IMG/VR virus record: IMGVR_UViG_3300045988_123643
From: a virus
Length of the DNA: 54,467 nt
Direction: 5' to 3' (one strand)
Below the pieces are notes generated by a model. The model searched no databases, was not told where the DNA came from, and saw nothing but the letters and a program-made list of their open reading frames with translations. Each line of letters begins with the position of its first letter. Within the stretch, counting starts at the first letter, position 1. The position numbers and the translations under genes are program-made. This document shows, piece after piece, positions 1,481 to 54,305 of the stretch.

Positions 1481-2581
1481 TTAAAAAGGTAATCCAGTTA
1501 TAGCTTCTAAACTTCCGTCTAAAATAATTTTATTAAACTCTTCATTCATGGATTGGTTATCTTTAATAATAGGATAAATATTATCTAAATATTTGGAAAT
1601 TATATTTTGCATCTCGATCATATTAATCATATTAATCAATCTTTCATTGTCATTTTTCTTTGCGATTATATCATGTAGCTCATTCATTAAATCCCAATAC
1701 GGTTCAGAGTATTTATCTATGTGGGTCAATTTACTAATATAATAATCATCAAATAAAACAGAAGTAAATTTCTTGACAATATTCTCGCAATCTTCATTTC
1801 TTAAAGATTCTTGCTTTACAAAAGAAATATTATCATAAAAATAATCTTTAAAGAATTTGAAGATTATTATGTTCTGATTATAAATAACTTTTGTGTAATC
1901 ACCTGAATCTTGAAGAATATTTCTGCCTATGGCAGATAGCATTTCATTCATTCGTTGAGACACATTTTCTAATGACGAAATGGCATCAAGCATTTCATCA
2001 TCTTTTCTTTTTCTCTGTAACTGTTGAAGATATAAAAACAGCATACCTGATATTTGATTCTCCATATAATTCTCAATCTCTTCAACATGATCAAATGTCT
2101 TAATTGCAGTAGTGGGTTCTAAGATACTTATGAATTTGAAAATATTAATGTCGTCAACATGGGCAAAATTAAATACTATTTTATCCTCAAATATCTTCTT
2201 ATTCTTCTTATATGTCTGATATTCTGCATAAACATTCTTATCAATAAACACGAAGGAGGGTATTCCGGCCATAGTAGCAGTCTCATGCTCCTTTCTCGTT
2301 ATTGAAACATATTGTTCATAAAGCTCTTTTTTGTCTTGAGAGACTTGCTCTCCTGATGCAGCACTTCCATACCGCCCACCAACAATAAGCACCATCATTT
2401 GGCAAGTCTTGACTTCGTTATAACATGACAGGTCTAATGGTTTATTGAATTCGAAAGTAACATTATCATTTTCAAATAGAACAGGTTCCATTCCAAAGTT
2501 GGCTAGAAAACGTTCTATTCGCTCTCTTACATGCTTTAGGTCATAGTATGTTGAACTTAAAAAGACTCTAGGTTTTGCCAT
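1481..2581 (-). CDS. DUF4062-like protein (TIR/Rossmann-like N-terminal domain plus about 270-aa helical C-terminal region), candidate defence protein
   Basis: The N-terminus reads KPRVFLSSTYYDLKHVRERIERFL...CQMMVLIVGGRYGS...TRKEHETATMAGIPSFVFIDKNV, which follows the DUF4062 consensus as I recall it. No Walker A (GxxxxGK[ST]) anywhere in the protein. Confidence 0.6.
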   Translation of the reverse strand: MAKPRVFLSSTYYDLKHVRERIERFLANFGMEPVLFENDNVTFEFNKPLDLSCYNEVKTCQMMVLIVGGRYGSAASGEQVSQDKKELYEQYVSITRKEHETATMAGIPSFVFIDKNVYAEYQTYKKNKKIFEDKIVFNFAHVDDINIFKFISILEPTTAIKTFDHVEEIENYMENQISGMLFLYLQQLQRKRKDDEMLDAISSLENVSQRMNEMLSAIGRNILQDSGDYTKVIYNQNIIIFKFFKDYFYDNISFVKQESLRNEDCENIVKKFTSVLFDDYYISKLTHIDKYSEPYWDLMNELHDIIAKKNDNERLINMINMIEMQNIISKYLDNIYPIIKDNQSMNEEFNKIILDGSLEAITGLPF

Positions 2582-14740: not shown

Positions 14741-15028
14741 ATGACATTTGAAGAAGCAGTTTCTTTGGTTGACAGAATTAAAGATCAGGTTGTCGGTGCT
14801 CCTGTAAAGGGAAGGTTTATTGAATCTTTGTTCATCGGGCCGACCTGTTGGGATGAAATGCATATCTTTATGAACATTTGTTTGCAGAAAGGGGAGGATG
14901 AAGCTATTAGTGAGTTTCTCGGAAAAAGTTTCTCCGTGTATGGCAAATCTGTTACCTATATCAAGCCGGATCTTCCCAAGTGGGATGTAACAGTATTGGA
15001 TGATTGGGAGAAGACAATATATAATTGA
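14741..15028 (+). CDS. Hypothetical protein, last gene of the rightward arm
   Basis: Frame 14645..15028 starts at a TTG. The ATG at 14741 (MTFEEAVSL) is more plausible. Confidence 0.45.
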   Translation: MTFEEAVSLVDRIKDQVVGAPVKGRFIESLFIGPTCWDEMHIFMNICLQKGEDEAISEFLGKSFSVYGKSVTYIKPDLPKWDVTVLDDWEKTIYN

Positions 15029-15056
15029 GAGGTAGCTTATTCGGCTACCTCTTTTT
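15027..15056 (+). terminator. Intrinsic terminator at the convergence of the two arms
   Basis: 9-bp stem AGAGGTAGC/GCTACCTCT, loop TTATTCG, then TTTTT. Overlaps the last codons of the convergent AbiH-like gene. Confidence 0.6.
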
Positions 15057-16356
15057 CTGTCGGAACTAAAGGAGAACAGTTTTCTCGGTTTACAACTATA
15101 TCACGCATATTAGGCTTATTATTAAAATTGCGAGATATGTTTTTTATTAAATCAATATAGTTATCTGCCCCATCTTCATACTGTCGATAAAAGACTTTAA
15201 TTGATATGCAATTATCATGTTCAAATAAAGTATTTAATAACGTCCGATCAGAATTTCCACAAGAATGCCCCATTATAAAAATCTGATATGGGCCTAATGA
15301 AATAAAATTCAGTAGTTCTCTATAGCTTCTTGTTTTATGATAACTTATTGATTTAATATTCTCTAGAAAATCATTGTTCTGCAATTTCTCTATTTTATTA
15401 TAATCATCATCTAATTCATCACCATATCCGAATATGATGGGATTATTCTTACTGTTAAGTTCTCCATGAATATTGATGATTTCATCAATATTATGATCAT
15501 TATATAACGTTTTCGCTATTTGGGTGTAATTGAAATTCAAAAGTAATGTGTATGGTAGAAGATGAAACTTTTTAAAAGACTCATTTTTGAGTTTTTTTTC
15601 AATAAATATTATTCGGGCCTCATTTTCTGTAAGGCAGTACTTATATGTTTTATTATCAACTTTTCTATCATATTCAAATTCATCAATTGTATTAGTTTGG
15701 ACCATTTCAGCAAAAATAGAATTTACATATACAGTTTGTTTACAATTAGCAATATCGTCAAATTCTACAAAACTTGAAAAAGCGTCTTGTATAGATTGAT
15801 GTTTTGCAATTTCAGTCTTTTCTATAATTTCTGTTAAATATTTTTCTAGCAATCTTTTTACATCATCAAACTCTTTATTAAGAGTACGGATACTTTCGTT
15901 TTGCTTTTGGGGATTTTCTTCCTGAAGTAACTCTTTCAATACACTATAATATTCATTTTCTATATCTACCCAATTTACAAGAGAACATTGATGAGATATA
16001 CGCTCAAAAAAATGATTTTTGAACTTTAAATGAACTGTCACATTTGAACTAGGATCATTATTATGCTCATCAATTAGTGTATGCAATTTCCATAAAGGAC
16101 TATCTTCTTTATAAGAAGATAGTCCTTTATTAACTCCGGCTTTATCATATTCTTTTTTAATTTTTATAAACTGATCTTCATAGTCATTAAGAGGGTGTTT
16201 ACCCCCTCCTCCATATTGTTGGTCTAACAACCGCCAGTATTTATCATAAATCCCTTCTTCAACAGTAGCCCAATAATCATTTATAAAATCTTTATATCCA
16301 GTCTTTAAATTGTGAGCTAAGTCAAAACCGTTGCCAATAATTATAATTCTATTCAT
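15037..16356 (-). CDS. AbiH-family abortive-infection protein
   Basis: N-terminus MNRIIIIGNGFDLAHNLKTGYKDFINDYW matches the AbiH family signature (IIGNGFDlahgl.T.Y.dF). Confidence 0.75.
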   Translation of the reverse strand: MNRIIIIGNGFDLAHNLKTGYKDFINDYWATVEEGIYDKYWRLLDQQYGGGGKHPLNDYEDQFIKIKKEYDKAGVNKGLSSYKEDSPLWKLHTLIDEHNNDPSSNVTVHLKFKNHFFERISHQCSLVNWVDIENEYYSVLKELLQEENPQKQNESIRTLNKEFDDVKRLLEKYLTEIIEKTEIAKHQSIQDAFSSFVEFDDIANCKQTVYVNSIFAEMVQTNTIDEFEYDRKVDNKTYKYCLTENEARIIFIEKKLKNESFKKFHLLPYTLLLNFNYTQIAKTLYNDHNIDEIINIHGELNSKNNPIIFGYGDELDDDYNKIEKLQNNDFLENIKSISYHKTRSYRELLNFISLGPYQIFIMGHSCGNSDRTLLNTLFEHDNCISIKVFYRQYEDGADNYIDLIKNISRNFNNKPNMRDIVVNRENCSPLVPTEKEVAE

Positions 16357-16386
16357 ACTAGAGGTTCATTAAGTTAATAAAAAATT

Positions 16387-16509
16387 TCATAACTCCTGAA
16401 CGGAATCATGACCATATTTATTTTCTTCTGCCATTACTTCTGTCATCCTATTGGAGTTTTTGGGGGGATGATTAACAATTATAGCTTTTATTGTATCATT
16501 GGTTAGCAT
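16387..16509 (-). CDS. Possible 40-aa ORF between the HNH-like and AbiH-like genes
   Basis: Hand translation gives MLTNDTIKAIIVNHPPKNSNRMTEVMAEENKYGHDSVQEL. Below the ORF-track cutoff. Confidence 0.25.
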   Translation of the reverse strand: MLTNDTIKAIIVNHPPKNSNRMTEVMAEENKYGHDSVQEL

Positions 16510-16519
16510 CGGTCAATAC

Positions 16520-17431
16520 CTATTCTCCTTTTTCTAGAAATATTTCTTTTCTTAATAATTCAACAGCACTTTCATCTTGCCAATAATCTCTATTAGTAAC
16601 TTCTTTTAACCTCATAGACTTATTCGGTCCAATGGTTGTAAGATAAGCTACTATTTCATCAAATGAAATAGTAGGGAAAGGTATCGCTACCAAAACATAA
16701 TACTCAATATTTTTTTTAATGGTGTAAGAAACTAAAAAACCATCGCAATCAGACATCAAATATACACCATCGGGAATCATTCGTTCTCTAGTTATCTTCC
16801 ATAGCTTAGGAACAACTTCTGAATCAGGTTTTTCAATCTGCTCTCTTATAGTATCATAAAGTTCATCTATCAGAAAGGTATAACCGAATTTTGCAAAAAG
16901 TATGATATATGCATTTTTCAACAACGCAACAGAAAGGCGTGTATCATCTACTTTTTTATTTTTATTCTCAATAGACAGCGCCATATCTTCCGCTAGTTGC
17001 TTCATATATTCACTTAATAAAGTAGGATTATTTTGTTTAAAGCTATTAGTCATTATCATACGCCCATCACTACAGACTTCTAATTGACCATTAAAAGTCT
17101 TATCAGCGACTTTAACTTTAACGTCCCTTTTTGTTCCTGGTATAAAAATAGAATTCTCATAGTTTTCAATTCTATTTATTAAGTAACAGTCCATAGATGA
17201 GCCACATGTATTATTACATTTTTTACATGTTAAGGCTATTCTTTTACCTCCTAATTTGTCTTGTGGTGCATCTTCTTGTGACAATTCATCCATTTGTTCA
17301 GCAGTGAACTTGTTCAAACACAAAGGACAAATGTATTCATTATTGTATGATGAAATATTAGCTAACCAACCTTTTTTATTTAATATATTAAGCTGTTTTT
17401 TAGACTTTTCAAAAAATGATTTTGTATCCAT
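16520..17431 (-). CDS. HNH-like zinc-finger protein with an unknown C-terminal domain; the first HNH histidine is replaced
   Basis: CPLC...SQEDAPQDKLGGKRIALTCKKCNNTCG parallels the HNH_5-type pattern CxxC...EHvpP..lGG...lTC..CNn.G, but reads ED where EH is expected. Confidence 0.5.
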   Translation of the reverse strand: MDTKSFFEKSKKQLNILNKKGWLANISSYNNEYICPLCLNKFTAEQMDELSQEDAPQDKLGGKRIALTCKKCNNTCGSSMDCYLINRIENYENSIFIPGTKRDVKVKVADKTFNGQLEVCSDGRMIMTNSFKQNNPTLLSEYMKQLAEDMALSIENKNKKVDDTRLSVALLKNAYIILFAKFGYTFLIDELYDTIREQIEKPDSEVVPKLWKITRERMIPDGVYLMSDCDGFLVSYTIKKNIEYYVLVAIPFPTISFDEIVAYLTTIGPNKSMRLKEVTNRDYWQDESAVELLRKEIFLEKGE

Positions 17432-17491
17432 ATCTTTTCAAATAAATATTTTTTGCAAAAATAAAAAAAACAACCTGCCAACGTTAAATAA

Positions 17492-17517
17492 GTTTCTATG
17501 TTTATAAACATAGAAAC
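17492..17517 (-). terminator. Perfect 26-bp palindrome GTTTCTATGTTTATAAACATAGAAAC separating the lysis cassette from the AbiH island
   Basis: 13+13 perfect inverted repeat in the 115-bp gap after the spanin stop. The T-tract is weak, so terminator function is inferred. Confidence 0.4.
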
Positions 17518-17546
17518 ACAAAAAAATCGCCATTTCTAAAATATAT

Positions 17547-18050
17547 TTATTTTAGGTATATATACACAAACACCCCTATAGCAATAAAAATAATGATTAC
17601 ATATATTTTATCTTTATGTAAATCCCACCAAGATAGTTCAATAACCTTCTCTCTTTGATTTAGTAAAGCATTCACCTTATTATTTATAGTATCAAGTCGA
17701 TTCGAGAACTGCTGCAAGGTAATGGATAATGTTTCATCAACTTCAGTCCTTTCCTGTTCTTGCTTAGAAACTTTAGTTATACTTTCTTTGACTACGTGCT
17801 GTTTACCGGCTGAATCCGGCGCTGAAAGATAAACAGTCGTATTCTCAATCTTAAGATCACTTAACCGATCATTTACAATCTTCGTTTGCTTACTAAGACC
17901 TATACGCAACTCTTCCATTACTTTCCGTAGATATTGAAATTCACCGGAGTAATCAGTTTGCTTATGCGTCTCAATATTGCGAGAAGACTTGCAGGACGAT
18001 AACCATATTGCTGACGCCAGCAAAATGATAATGTAGATTAATCGCTTCAT
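17547..18050 (-). CDS. Unimolecular spanin candidate (N-terminal lipoprotein signal plus C-terminal TM)
   Basis: Lipobox LLASAIWLSSC at the N-terminus, coiled-coil middle, C-terminal TM IYVIIIFIAIGVFVYIYL. ATGA overlap with the amidase gene. Confidence 0.55.
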   Translation of the reverse strand: MKRLIYIIILLASAIWLSSCKSSRNIETHKQTDYSGEFQYLRKVMEELRIGLSKQTKIVNDRLSDLKIENTTVYLSAPDSAGKQHVVKESITKVSKQEQERTEVDETLSITLQQFSNRLDTINNKVNALLNQREKVIELSWWDLHKDKIYVIIIFIAIGVFVYIYLK

Positions 18051-18541
18051 GGTCGGATAACAGTATTACGCAAGAAATTAGGGAATTCGGAGCGTACATC
18101 AAAACAGGGGCACGCCTTGATATATTCTTTCGGCTCTACCTCACCGCTGCCGTCCAGATCCGGAGAAGCATCACGGTGTCCAAGCACTTCAATTATAAGA
18201 TATTCCTTACAGAGCTTTGCTACCAGCTCACGTAAACTAGCTCTTTGAGCGGGTGTCCGTGTATCAGCAGGTTTTCCGTTCGCATCAAGTCCACCGATAT
18301 AGCAGATACCTATCGAATGCTTATTGTATGATATGCCAGAGAATCCCTTTGTGCTACAATGCGCCCCATCGATGCTTAACGACCGTCCATCCTCAACCAT
18401 TCCGTCAAGGTCAATGATGAAGTTATAACCGATCTGGCTGAATCCCCTTTGTTTGTGCATCCGGTCAATATCCTTCGCACGTAAATCTTGCTCGGCACGT
18501 GTTGCTGAGCAATGGATGATAATAGCATCAATTTTCTTCAT
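18047..18541 (-). CDS. N-acetylmuramoyl-L-alanine amidase endolysin (Amidase_2/PGRP type)
   Basis: IIIHCSATRA...GYNFIIDLDG...GAHC...NKHSIGICYIGG are classic Amidase_2 motifs. Confidence 0.85.
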   Translation of the reverse strand: MKKIDAIIIHCSATRAEQDLRAKDIDRMHKQRGFSQIGYNFIIDLDGMVEDGRSLSIDGAHCSTKGFSGISYNKHSIGICYIGGLDANGKPADTRTPAQRASLRELVAKLCKEYLIIEVLGHRDASPDLDGSGEVEPKEYIKACPCFDVRSEFPNFLRNTVIRP

Positions 18542-50073: not shown

Positions 50074-51372
50074 CTATGCCGTCAGTTTCTGACGTATTAA
50101 GTTCATATTCTTTTTTACGAGTCCAATAATGCGTTCATGATACTCAGTATTATTATTACAAACACCCCGTGACTGGACAATACTCAATGTTTTCAGATTT
50201 ACTTCAACCGTTTCGATGCGCTTATTACCAATACGAGCTGTTAGAATCAAAGACTCTGACTTTCTGTAGTATTTATTAGTAAACACGCAATGGTGCATTT
50301 CTTTTCCTTCTTCTAAGAAGTCCATAACGCTTTGTAGAACGCCAATCTGGATAAGATTGTCACCGAATGCTATACCGAAGAAACGACCTTTCTGTTTTAG
50401 ATATTCTTTCTCATCTTTTATTGCTTGTTTCCTCTTTTTCTCAAAGTCAATCTTAGCATCTATTTTCTGTTTTATTTTCATCACTTCATCGTGAGCTTGC
50501 TTTAGATTCTTTGGACAGACGTATTTAGGAGAACGAATATCTCTTCCGATGGTATTGGACATTTCCAAGTAATCAAAATACATTCTCAGATCGGTATGTT
50601 TCGTAATCTTAAAGCCGTGACGTCTGGCTATTTTTATTGCTGGCCAGAACTTTCCAACTTGGGTTATATTATCTTCCATATATTCCAATAATTCTTTATC
50701 ATCTTGCTTTATCAATGTCTCAACAAACGGATAACGCAATAACATCCTGAATAGGATATCGGGAGTGATACCATTAAAATTCTCATCGATTCCAGCATAC
50801 TTCAGTTTTGGGAGTAGTCTTATGGTTTTGATATGACTTGCCCAAATGTGGTATTTGTCTTTTATACCATAATCAGAACGTATTTCCATGTCTGAACTCC
50901 AACACCAATGATCATAAGCTCCATAGCAATAGCTGGATGATTTGGACATTATTACCTCAATACCTTTGGGTGATATCCAATTCTGAACAGCTTCGTTGAT
51001 CTTCATGTCGGCGGGTTGGCCTACGCGGCAGGACTTGGAAATAACAAAATGCCTTAAAACTTGGAATCCTCCGATCGTGGTTATAAGCGTGAAGTACATT
51101 GATTGAGGTGAATATACCCTTTTACGACTTCTTTGTACTTTAAGGTGCTTTCCACAACAAGGACAATTCGCACCCAATAAAGAGTATGACAAATCAGATT
51201 CTTTAGCCTCAAAGACTTCTCCGCACTCAGTACACCAAATCTTTTTAGCCCTATGGAATCCTTCCACCTTAAAGCAATTTTTTATTGCCCAGGCGGTCTG
51301 ATTTTCAGTAATAGCAGGAAGCTTAGCACTCAGCTTTACAACCTGTCTCTGTAACGCTGTTTTTGGTTTCAT
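50074..51372 (-). CDS. PcfJ-like protein
   Basis: 432 aa with N-terminal Cys pairs (CTECG...CPCCG) and a C-terminal EGKEMHHCV motif characteristic of PcfJ-like proteins. Confidence 0.65.
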   Translation of the reverse strand: MKPKTALQRQVVKLSAKLPAITENQTAWAIKNCFKVEGFHRAKKIWCTECGEVFEAKESDLSYSLLGANCPCCGKHLKVQRSRKRVYSPQSMYFTLITTIGGFQVLRHFVISKSCRVGQPADMKINEAVQNWISPKGIEVIMSKSSSYCYGAYDHWCWSSDMEIRSDYGIKDKYHIWASHIKTIRLLPKLKYAGIDENFNGITPDILFRMLLRYPFVETLIKQDDKELLEYMEDNITQVGKFWPAIKIARRHGFKITKHTDLRMYFDYLEMSNTIGRDIRSPKYVCPKNLKQAHDEVMKIKQKIDAKIDFEKKRKQAIKDEKEYLKQKGRFFGIAFGDNLIQIGVLQSVMDFLEEGKEMHHCVFTNKYYRKSESLILTARIGNKRIETVEVNLKTLSIVQSRGVCNNNTEYHERIIGLVKKNMNLIRQKLTA

Positions 51373-53054: not shown

Positions 53055-54305
53055 TCAGTCTTTTTTTTCTTCTTTTTTCTGTAATAAATCCAATACAGTG
53101 CGATTTGCTTTATCACAAATGCTATAATCTATATCAATGTAGATGTCAGCCATCTTATAATCATTATTCACATGACCGAGACAGAAGTCAATGTCTGCCT
53201 TCGGTACTCCGGCTTTATTTCTTGCCAAGCTGGCCCAGCTGTGGCGGGCCCAGTTCGTGGTGATTTTGAAGTCGAGTTCTAGATTCAGACAAATATCTTT
53301 CAGCCCATTATTGATTGCTCGCATGAAATTATTCAGGCTACAATAATTAGTATGAAAGTAGGAGAGGAAATACCCCTCTGTGTATTTATCGAGCAGGACG
53401 CGAAGCTCTGGCTCAATCTTGACGGAAAGCGGTACCTGTTCGTGATTCTTCTCTGTATTCGTTTTAGAACGCGTATATTCCAGTCTTCCGCGGCGTTCAC
53501 ACGAAATGCTATATAGGTCATTGATGTTGACTCCCATCATGTAGAACATCATCATAAAGACATCACGTGCCATATTAGTGCGTTTTTTATCAGATTGGAA
53601 ATCCCTGATCTTTAGCAAGGTAATGATATCTATATTCTTTCGTTTTCTCCGGTACTCCGGTATCTCAGCCTTTTTGAACGGATCGCCTGGGATTCTTATA
53701 ATATCAAAGTCCTCATTGTTGTAATAGAGCTTGGCTTTGTTATACAATGCTCTCAGTCCTCTAAGGTAATGGCTTATTGTGCCCGGTTCTAAGGGAATGC
53801 CGGCAGGACCGGAGTGATATAAGTCTTTGATCATCTTATTTAGCAGAAATGAGGTGATTAGCTTAATATCTATCTTCTTTCTTTTTGTGTACCAACATAG
53901 TGTATCAATAGAAGAGCTATACCATTCAGCTGTCTTTTTCTTTTTCGTCTGAATTACTATGTTTTGAGCGAACTCTACGAAGTCTATAAACTCGGCGTCA
54001 GGAGCTAGGGATTTCTCTATTTCTTCTTTTAAATCCTTGCATGACATAAACTGAGTTCTTTCTTGTCCTAGCTTTAAATACTCTCTCCGGATCTTTTGGA
54101 TATATGCATTGATCTCATACTCTATCATTTCTCCATTTGCCACATTAGGCAAGATCCGGCCGACTCCATCCATTCCTTCAGGTTGAATGAAATAACAAGT
54201 GGCTATATACTGTGACTCTCTATTGTGATAGATTCTAATTTTAATATTTGATGTTCCATCTTGTTTTAGATGTCCCTTAAATACAATTGCTTTAAATGTT
54301 GCCAT
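53055..54305 (-). CDS. int: Tyrosine recombinase/integrase (Bacteroidota phage type with an N-terminal arm-binding-like domain)
   Basis: C-terminal catalytic pattern ...ARHSWASLARN...LGHVNNDYKMADIYIDIDY (R, HxxR, H, Y). The N-terminal MATFKAIVFKGHLKQDGTSNIKIRIYH is typical of this integrase class. Confidence 0.9.
   Translation of the reverse strand: MATFKAIVFKGHLKQDGTSNIKIRIYHNRESQYIATCYFIQPEGMDGVGRILPNVANGEMIEYEINAYIQKIRREYLKLGQERTQFMSCKDLKEEIEKSLAPDAEFIDFVEFAQNIVIQTKKKKTAEWYSSSIDTLCWYTKRKKIDIKLITSFLLNKMIKDLYHSGPAGIPLEPGTISHYLRGLRALYNKAKLYYNNEDFDIIRIPGDPFKKAEIPEYRRKRKNIDIITLLKIRDFQSDKKRTNMARDVFMMMFYMMGVNINDLYSISCERRGRLEYTRSKTNTEKNHEQVPLSVKIEPELRVLLDKYTEGYFLSYFHTNYCSLNNFMRAINNGLKDICLNLELDFKITTNWARHSWASLARNKAGVPKADIDFCLGHVNNDYKMADIYIDIDYSICDKANRTVLDLLQKKEEKKD

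Follow-up and report, generated by a model that had tools for sequence, protein, structure and literature searches.

The stretch of viral DNA analysed here (the window; 54,467 nucleotides, IMG/VR record IMGVR_UViG_3300045988_123643) probably carries an accessory hotspot of a Bacteroides-type temperate phage, which lies between the lysis cassette and a convergent terminator and holds two functionally independent single-gene modules. An AbiH-family gene and a gene for a 303-aa finger protein (Table 1) are neighbours in this recombination hotspot and probably form no two-part defence system. A temperate phage with an accessory island 3′ of its lysis cassette had been proposed in a first-pass annotation made from the letters alone, and the gene content of the window bears this out, with an integrase, an HTH repressor, RecT, a terminase and a capsid gene. 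The minus-strand ORFs of 439, 303 and 167 aa that it described are all in place. The 167-aa ORF is the last gene of the lysis cassette, with a holin, a 44-aa ORF and an Amidase_2 endolysin upstream of it, and its product matches PHROG 35356, a family of unassigned function in PHROG, and has an LSSC lipobox and a C-terminal transmembrane segment, and is therefore considered to be spanin-like. This gene forms the left flank of the hotspot.

Table 1. Positions of the island's features in the window.
Feature	Position	Strand	Basis or remark
AbiH-family protein, 439 aa	15037..16356	minus	ORF and Pfam
303-aa HNH_5-type finger protein	16520..17431	minus	ORF and AF2 model
Spanin-like lipoprotein, 167 aa	17547..18050	minus	LSSC lipobox and C-terminal TM segment
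Swappable cargo cassette (palindrome, promoter and 303-aa gene)	~16440..17590	minus	limits approximate
Perfect palindrome, 26 bp, GTTTCTATGTTTATAAACATAGAAAC	17492..17517	no strand	
Predicted Bacteroides-type -7 promoter box TATTTTTG	17456..17463	minus	
Rejected 40-aa mini-ORF	16387..16509	minus	
Conserved AbiH leader, ~80 nt	16357..16436	minus	starts ATGGCAGAAGAAA
uORF in AbiH leader, 15 codons, MAEENKYGHDSVQEL	16434..16387	minus	
GC-rich hairpin shared with convergent early arm	15027..15053	no strand	

The first-pass annotation had paired AbiH with the 303-aa protein as an HNH-like sensor in a two-component variant, a reading that it would have given up if the 303-aa gene were not linked with AbiH homologues elsewhere. 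Loci were sampled by peptide-pattern scans, which are not exhaustive, and no AbiH neighbour was found in 15 genome loci of the 303-aa family, in 7 divergent viral loci, or in 75 metagenome loci outside the allele of at least 97% identity; the contigs of four homologues (P0003, P0004, P0008 and P0018) had no AbiH either. Nor was there a conserved partner of any kind, as the roughly 100 loci of the 303-aa family had no neighbour family in common, and one apparent neighbour cluster of 14 loci was discarded as antisense shadow ORFs within the 303-family gene. Searching from the AbiH side, we found the 303-aa gene to be absent from 61 of 68 viral AbiH loci. Viral loci with the pair numbered 7 of 68 and metagenome loci 5 of 80; all have a single cassette allele (at least 97% identity) and belong to one phage group, in which AbiH alleles of two kinds (96% and 79% identical) adjoin the cassette. 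In other prophages, this post-lysis slot is taken by the closest homologues of the 303-aa protein (72% and 60% identity), with no AbiH, and other relatives adjoin tandem integrases, conjugative-transposon tra genes, and a type IIG RM system or a PD-T4-6-like kinase. The family to which the 303-aa protein belongs is large, solitary and borne on mobile elements. Searches of GenBank phage records with the region (megablast) and with both proteins (tblastn) gave no match, and the literature searched gave nothing relevant on AbiH in Bacteroides prophages.

Comparison with sibling phages delimited the slot. They align with the window to ~17584/17592 and resume at 16436/16439, with other cargo or none between, and at least six states of the slot between spanin and AbiH leader were seen among related phages. 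Its alternative contents were nothing at all, a 330-aa protein of unknown function, a 305-aa AbiH paralogue, SocA_Panacea together with a 630-aa protein, or three small ORFs, and one locus (L031) had a 360-aa gene on the opposite strand. All cargo breakpoints lie just 5′ of the AbiH leader. When PADLOC was run on these alternative cargos, the result was mostly empty, and DUF6602 alone resembled PD-DExK/NucC. Identity is mosaic: two loci that share the cassette with the window (L047 and L053) match it at 95-100% there and at 61-87% in the lysis genes. Over AbiH the identity is 49-96%. AbiH behaves as a single gene, standing directly after the spanin in L030, L032, L034, L036, L067-71 and L100. 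Because the 303-aa family occurs without AbiH, AbiH occurs alone or with other cargo, and the pair is limited to one allele, we regard the interval of about 16440-17590 as a swappable cassette.

The island had been described as three genes, the third being a possible 40-aa ORF between the 303-aa and AbiH genes. This mini-ORF straddles the junction of cassette and leader; in L047 and L053 indels of 1 nt and 13 nt disrupt the first 25 codons, and the last 15 codons, which are part of the AbiH leader, are alone conserved. Since frameshifting indels break it in cassettes of 97-99% identity, it is not a gene, and since it fails conservation the island has two genes. The uORF of the leader is intact in 6 of 8 distinct leaders. 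We considered a hairpin at 16411..16387 as an intergenic terminator or a conserved attenuator and dismissed it, since it falls within the AbiH leader and, on inspection of the alignment, other leader alleles do not keep the pairing; as it is not conserved between leaders, we do not propose it as an attenuator.

Bacteroides promoters carry a -7 box with the consensus TAnnTTTG. A perfect box of this type lies 24 nt upstream of the 303-aa ATG, and an equivalent box, TAATTTTG, was found 20 nt upstream of the ATG in L016, so that, judging by these motifs, the island probably has its own promoter. TAnnTTTG does not occur between the 303-aa stop codon and the AbiH ATG, and in the cargo-less locus L034 TACTTTTG stands upstream of the AbiH leader. 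The AbiH gene of the window has lost the promoter box of its cargo-less relatives and is therefore probably read through from the cassette promoter. The 303-aa and AbiH genes are adjacent, co-oriented and 163 nt apart, and are probably co-transcribed because no clear terminator or AbiH promoter lies between them; they would thus share a transcript and have separate mechanisms.

The 26-bp perfect palindrome reported upstream of the island is present and unique within the window; the number expected from shuffles is 0. Folded as an RNA hairpin it gives -11.9 kcal/mol (z = -4.5). In another phage (L016-21), the cassette of a 72%-identical homologue contains the 12-bp core of the palindrome, TGTTTATAAACA, 73-77 nt upstream of the ATG, yet the L016 counterpart has -3.1 kcal/mol and forms no stable hairpin. 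We therefore rejected the palindrome as solely a conserved RNA terminator, and see two candidate roles for it, one as a weak, AT-rich terminator acting on late read-through and the other as a protein-binding site in the cassette promoter region. The hairpin said to close the island was also found, overlapping the AbiH stop codon, and as a terminator it is good on the plus strand only, where a U-tract follows it and it folds at -16.7 kcal/mol; the minus strand gives -14.1 kcal/mol and no U-tract.

Assignment of the 439-aa protein to the AbiH family was confirmed by Pfam AbiH (PF14253; residues 4-386, E=2.4e-24, 87.3 bits vs a cut-off of 30.9), and the protein has more than 7282 homologues; homologues carry precomputed PF14253 and the NCBI name 'AbiH family protein'. 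Its N-terminus, IIIIGNGFDLAHN (residues 4-16), contains a beta-strand and then a GNGFD loop (8-12), in which N9, G10, F11 and D12 are invariant among 42 sequences; NFNYT (274-278) and IHG (296-298) are invariant in the aligned homologues. By reading, without alignment, we take the latter two to be the counterparts of the SIR2 TQN and HG motifs. The top 17 Foldseek matches in PDB of the AF2 model (pLDDT 80) were all SIR2 of SIR2-HerA (Nezha), and these matches are weak (E 4.5e-3 to 0.15, TM 0.26-0.31, probability up to 0.90); a PDB sequence search with the AbiH profile gave no match. AbiH has been classed as sirtuin-like/SIRim (PMC13064643; bioRxiv 10.1101/2024.09.18.613514). We infer that the 439-aa AbiH is SIR2-like and that NAD+ depletion is its most likely mechanism. 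Its dN/dS of 0.23-0.29 indicates purifying selection.

The claim of an HNH_5-like finger in the 303-aa protein held in part. The quoted motif, the Asp at position 54 and the orphan C-terminal domain are all there, but the protein's own HNH_5 score (PF14279) of 16 bits is below the cut-off of 27.5. HNH_5 homology of the family is nevertheless supported, since 116 of 119 representatives of the wider family match HNH_5 (E<=0.01; best 1.7e-10). The AF2 model (pLDDT 91) shows a beta-beta-alpha finger with strands 50-55 and 63-69 and helix 70-94, and the four cysteines of the CxxC...CxxC zinc knuckle (C35, C38, C69 and C72) are kept in 117-118 of 119 family sequences. A C2H2/RING zinc-finger identity offered by the PDB profile search was spurious, as its matches were confined to the CPxC stretch. 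For comparing the active site we used the His-Me geometry of an acidic residue before the catalytic position, an Asn at the helix start and a polar residue at +8 (PMC5714182). The metal ligands are well preserved in the family, with E53 in 117 of 119 sequences, N73 in all 119 and D81 in 111, the other 8 having Glu. The position of the catalytic general-base His, at the end of beta-1, is Asp54 in our protein, and across the family it is Asp in 74 sequences and His in 45 (62% Asp; n=119). Tyr83 stands where His is often conserved. The Asp54 and His54 classes conserve E53, N73, D81 and the four Cys equally, and the earlier description of the finger as probably inactive is not supported.

The C-terminal ~200 aa of the 303-aa protein are family-specific and highly conserved across 3138 clusters, and had no match in Pfam, PHROG, NCBIfam, PADLOC, PDB or BFVD. 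For the whole protein, PADLOC, NCBIfam and PHROGs returned nothing meaningful, and Foldseek of the model found nothing at E<=0.001 in PDB or BFVD. The gene is under purifying selection (dN/dS 0.10-0.24, and 0.10-0.14 at 60-72% identity). This family is the only novel lead of the locus. Tentatively, it could be a new family (~3,100 clusters at 50% identity) of stand-alone effectors against phages or mobile elements, in which a His-Me finger that uses or tolerates Asp for the near-invariant catalytic His is joined to a C-terminal domain without detectable structural relative, and whose genes, in cassettes with their own promoter, would move between integrative elements, conjugative transposons and the post-lysis slots of prophages. 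With its Asp/His-polymorphic catalytic position and a confident model that matches nothing in PDB or BFVD, the family is a concrete candidate.

We weighed three other explanations of the locus. A two-component variant, with the 303-aa protein as a catalytically dead sensor and partner of AbiH, would draw on the adjacency of two same-strand genes probably on one transcript, on the replacement of two His residues, the general base by Asp and a frequently conserved one by Tyr83, and on the recurrence of the pair with two AbiH alleles. Such a variant would, if true, have been a new defence architecture. It is nonetheless very unlikely and falls by the linkage condition that the first-pass annotation had set for it, given the ~100 loci of the 303-aa family without AbiH, the loci where AbiH follows the spanin alone, the unrelated genes that fill the slot in sibling phages, and an otherwise undecayed site whose position 54 varies between Asp and His family-wide. 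As the evidence counts against it, a misdirected experiment is saved. It is even harder to credit that the slot gene, of whatever family, tunes or gates the resident AbiH as an alternative trigger sensor or as an immunity factor that shields the phage's own lytic cycle from AbiH, in a modular arrangement of AbiH and variable adaptor. All cargos do enter at one point just 5′ of the AbiH leader, which places them upstream in AbiH's transcription unit, and the 305-aa AbiH paralogue is a frequent alternative cargo; AbiH without cargo is however common, the cargos are mutually unrelated and found elsewhere without AbiH, and some cargo lies on the opposite strand, as in L031.

A third possibility is that the 303-aa gene encodes a free-standing HNH endonuclease of the homing type, selfish or already in decay, which entered the junction of spanin and AbiH by cleavage and recombinational repair with no benefit to the lysogen. 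Free-standing HNH homing enzymes have an N-terminal His-Me finger followed by a C-terminal domain, an architecture that the 303-aa protein resembles. The presence/absence polymorphism between close phages, the sharp identity step from cassette (95-100%) to flanks (61-87%), what looks like co-conversion reaching into the 5′ third of AbiH (91-96%) and the loss of zinc ligands in some relatives (P0006-P0009) fit this origin as well. We still hold it to be unlikely, because the general-base His is Asp in our protein and most of its family, the low dN/dS between homologues and the highly conserved C-terminal domain are atypical of a decaying selfish gene, and the relatives are found as cargo beside integrases, tra genes and RM or kinase defence genes rather than as insertions in conserved phage genes. 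Unrelated cargos, moreover, share the slot and its right-hand breakpoint, which flank recombination would explain without any endonuclease.

The reading that we prefer, two independent modules in one hotspot, would work as follows. The resident module would consist of the ~80-nt leader and the 439-aa AbiH, whose Gly-rich, Asn and His motifs are intact, and in the lysogen AbiH would act against superinfecting phages as a phage-triggered, NAD+-consuming abortive-infection effector. The cassette would have been swapped in through recombination in its conserved flanks, the spanin 3′ end on one side and, on the other side, the AbiH leader with the 5′ third of the gene, bringing its own Bacteroides promoter and upstream palindrome. 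The 303-aa protein would act alone on DNA, as a restriction-like or exclusion nuclease or as a DNA binder, with specificity supplied by its C-terminal domain. Locally, a cassette gene may still interact functionally with AbiH.

Like lactococcal AbiH (PF14253), the Bacteroides AbiH is a single gene without conserved partner on a mobile element. It differs in its fixed post-lysis position in the prophage with a conserved leader and uORF, and the 439-aa protein carries a long helical insertion (residues ~20-265) and matches the PADLOC AbiH model over its first 31 residues only. NADase activity and mechanism of lactococcal AbiH are not yet established (PMC13064643). A Bacteroides AbiH subfamily with intact SIR2-type motifs could help to settle the AbiH mechanism. 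With the NADase effectors SIR2 of SIR2-HerA (Nezha), ThsA and DSR2 it would share a Rossmann-type SIR2-like core, its best structural match, whereas it lacks HerA as a partner, as well as a SLOG domain and a large sensor domain.

The 303-aa protein shares the beta-beta-alpha-metal finger and zinc knuckle with HNH_5/His-Me finger nucleases, including McrA (stand-alone type IV restriction) and free-standing HNH homing endonucleases, as well as E53, N73 at the helix start and D81 at +8, and its family is likewise a solitary gene with an extra domain. The differences are the general-base His, near-invariant in those nucleases and Asp in our protein and 62% of its family, and a C-terminal domain that matches no known DNA-binding or modification-reading domain.

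Prophages and their satellites are known to carry cargo hotspots, such as those of P2 and P4 and the post-lysis morons of lambdoid phages, for example bor. The Bacteroides slot likewise has a fixed position, conserved phage flanks and interchangeable cargo between close relatives, and it resembles these hotspots in holding defence-type genes (AbiH, DUF6602/NucC-like and Panacea-type TA). It differs from them in its setting, Bacteroides temperate phages, in having one near-fixed occupant (AbiH), with the variable slot placed between its leader and the spanin, and in its cargos, most of which have no known function. We believe that this well-delimited hotspot of Bacteroides temperate phages can be used for mining defence and exclusion genes borne by gut phages.

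The accessory island that the first-pass annotation placed after the lysis cassette is real, with its ORFs, palindrome and hairpin all present in the window (see table). Its expression is probably independent of the late operon. The window, with an integrase, an HTH repressor, RecT, an SNF2 helicase, terminase and a capsid E gene, is that of a temperate phage. The palindrome occurs once in the window, where chance would predict none; the longest inverted repeat of the region (18-nt perfect, 3-nt spacer, 16092-16130) lies within the AbiH coding sequence. The opposite end of the early region has, near the HTH repressor, a gene for a 366-aa protein (1481-2581, minus strand) with an N-terminal DUF4062 domain (E=8e-19), which could be a further accessory or defence-type function carried by the phage. 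Towards the far end of the window, 50074-51372 and 53055-54305 encode a PcfJ-like protein and a tyrosine integrase (Arm-DNA-bind_5 + Phage_int_SAM_5); they mark the integration module and perhaps also an adjoining mobile element.

Features of the lysis cassette and of the island behind it (window coordinates)
Feature	Position	Strand	Remark
Holin-like gene, 152 aa		minus	first of lysis cassette
44-aa ORF		minus	lysis cassette, after holin-like gene
Amidase_2 endolysin	18047..18541	minus	lysis cassette
Spanin-like lipoprotein, 167 aa	17547..18050	minus	lysis cassette
Perfect palindrome, 26 bp	17492..17517
303-aa ORF	16520..17431	minus
40-aa ORF	16387..16509	minus
439-aa ORF	15037..16356	minus
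GC-rich hairpin	15027..15053		shared with convergent early arm

The 439-aa AbiH and the 303-aa protein had been proposed to form a two-component system, and we tested whether the 303-aa family is linked with AbiH homologues elsewhere, absence of such linkage having been set beforehand as the refuting condition. No AbiH lay within 6 kb of the 303-family gene at any of 15 loci from species-representative genomes, nor was it present at the seven divergent IMG/VR loci, five of which adjoin tandem tyrosine integrases, or at 75 of 80 metagenome loci. The other five all carry the same cassette (at least 97%), and AbiH neighbours are limited to such loci in the sample surveyed. Elsewhere, a 72% identical homologue (P0003, 24 contigs read) directly follows the Amidase_3/spanin cassette of another prophage and precedes a 180-aa unknown protein and DUF6965, and a 60% identical one (P0004) follows a Peptidase_M15 lysis cassette and precedes a pentapeptide protein and a DUF6602 (NucC-like) protein; P0008 is located mid-prophage and P0018 in a capsule locus. 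The P0018 gene (36% identical; L041-L044) and four or five unannotated small genes look like a module inserted within this capsular-polysaccharide biosynthesis locus. All-vs-all clustering of neighbours gave no conserved partner of the 303-aa gene, and the sole large cluster was discarded as antisense shadow ORFs. Among the genes around family members are conjugative-transposon tra genes, ArdA, resolvases, type IIG RM/SspH-like proteins, a PD-T4-6-like kinase, GajA and a helicase, which by inspection lends these loci something of the character of mobile elements or defence islands.

Almost without exception, AbiH relatives of 59-97% identity sit in Bacteroides prophages as the final gene behind the lysis cassette, the endolysin of which varies in type (Amidase_2, Amidase_3, GH108). 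Between spanin and AbiH, the slot may be empty or hold an unknown protein of 330 aa, a 305-aa AbiH paralogue, SocA_Panacea with a 630-aa protein, three small ORFs, or a 360-aa gene on the opposite strand; it holds the 303-aa gene at 7 of 68 viral loci. AbiH alleles beside the 303-aa cassette are 96% and 79% identical to that of the window. The two genes do meet at the shared cassette. With 303-aa loci elsewhere lacking AbiH and slot contents varying across AbiH loci, the proposed pair is not supported and we hold it to be improbable. A slot gene serving as a variable adaptor for AbiH could accommodate the changing contents; with empty slots and 303-family loci without AbiH also on record, this seems the least probable account. 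In many sibling prophages (L023-L026, 4002-4919; L078-L081, L083, L088, L089, L093) the 305-aa paralogue sits upstream of a ~436-aa AbiH, and the tandem could be a heteromeric SIR2 pair. One further locus (L030, 3341-4000) has a ~660-bp non-coding spanin-AbiH gap with several TTAATTG[GT]ACCTTG[CT]GGAATTG-like repeat copies, which could be a cargo remnant or a recombination site.

Identity between the window and L053, which carries the same cassette, is mosaic: 61-87% in the lysis genes, 95-100% in the cassette (~17650 to 16550), 91-96% in the 5′ third of AbiH and 49-84% in the remainder, the pattern expected from recombination in conserved flanks. Homology to phages with other cargo ends near 17584-17592 and restarts at 16436-16439, exactly where the AbiH leader has its 5′ edge. 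The 303-aa ATG is preceded at 24 nt by a -7 box, TATTTTTG (17463..17456), that fits the Bacteroides consensus TAnnTTTG perfectly; in another phage, the cassette of the 72%-identical homologue (L016) has TAATTTTG 20 nt upstream of the ATG. Both cassettes retain the 12-bp palindrome core TGTTTATAAACA 73-77 nt upstream of the ATG, and only that of the window folds stably (-11.9 versus -3.1 kcal/mol); the palindrome is therefore a candidate weak terminator, a candidate protein-binding site, or both. In relatives without cargo, a strong GC-rich terminator follows the spanin, and a TACTTTTG box precedes the AbiH leader by ~20 nt. The window lacks both elements in the interval from the 303-aa stop to the AbiH ATG, and transcription of its AbiH gene probably relies on read-through from the cassette promoter.

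The possible 40-aa gene between the two was rejected. At L047 and L053, 1- and 13-nt indels disrupt its first 25 codons within a cassette 95-100% identical to that of the window, and the only conserved part, the last 15 codons (MAEENKYGHDSVQEL, 16434..16387), belongs to a ~80-nt leader preceding AbiH in all relatives examined; the ORF is therefore a chance extension. The leader (16387-16436, minus strand; also L029, L034, L035, L047, L053) opens with ATGGCAGAAGAAA and contains a 15-codon uORF, MAEE[NK]KY[GDSA]H[DE][SF]VQ[EGR]L. Of eight distinct leaders, six have this uORF intact, and it is disrupted in L023 by an ATA start and in L028 by a 1-nt deletion. All cargo breakpoints fall immediately 5′ of it, and it is a candidate leader peptide, RNA element or recombination site.

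The 303-aa protein alone matches HNH_5 weakly (16 bits), and a word-indexed search gave 38 relatives; an exhaustive profile search (E<=1e-3) gave 3,138 cluster representatives, most ~300-330 aa with full-length matches, and HNH_5 was matched in 116 of 119 diverse representatives. Its confident AF2 model (pLDDT 91, pTM 0.88) has a beta-beta-alpha finger, made up of strands 50-55 and 63-69 and helix 70-94, with an alpha/beta domain behind it. The degenerate finger noted at first pass, with Asp for the catalytic His, is confirmed, and its description as probably inactive is not. At the general-base position (Asp54), 74 family sequences have Asp and 45 have His, and E53, N73, D81 and four Cys, which correspond to usual metal-ligand positions under the His-Me finger classification (PMC5714182), are equally conserved in both classes, which argues that Asp54 is a family-wide polymorphism of a maintained site and no sign of decay. 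Purifying selection acts on the gene (dN/dS 0.10-0.24). Three of the four zinc-ligand Cys are gone (CPGT..., TSKYWNN) in the P0006-P0009 subclade (e.g. Parabacteroides goldsteinii, L038), which retains E53, D54, N73, D81 and the C-terminal domain; as far as the alignment goes, this suggests a conserved function independent of the zinc knuckle. No match was found in PDB or BFVD, by whole model or profile, nor in PADLOC, NCBIfam or PHROGs. This uncharacterised family is the sole lead with real discovery potential.

We favour, with reasonable confidence, a recombination hotspot that holds two modules independent of each other: a SIR2-like AbiH gene as the resident, likely an NADase-type abortive-infection effector, and an exchangeable cassette whose 303-aa product would be a solitary DNA-targeting protein. 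That the 303-aa gene is instead a selfish homing-type endonuclease seems unlikely to us; its finger and the sharp identity step at the cassette would suit such an element, and relatives lying as cargo beside integrases and tra genes speak against it.

For the resident module, the AbiH call was upheld by Pfam (87.3 bits, cut-off 30.9). Homologues of the protein number more than 7,282, many of them Bacteroides proteins named 'AbiH family protein', and GNGFD (8-12), NFNYT (274-278) and IHG (296-298) are invariant in 42 relatives. Two alleles from short contigs, P0062 (468 aa) and P0100 (434 aa), carry a protein-kinase fragment ending HLDIKPDNIII (fusion point IDEHNND) in place of their N-terminal ~95 residues, GNGFD loop included; this could reflect either true recombination or an artefact of assembly or gene calling. 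NAD+ depletion is our inference; the literature (PMC13064643) gives the mechanism of AbiH itself as unknown. The top 17 PDB matches of the AF2 model (pLDDT 80) are SIR2 of the SIR2-HerA/Nezha defence system, weak as they are (E 4.5e-3 to 0.15, probability at most 0.90, TM ~0.3), and are consistent with the published placement of AbiH among sirtuin-like immune proteins (PMC13064643; bioRxiv 10.1101/2024.09.18.613514); this AbiH is a new member of an already known kind of protein, of low novelty.
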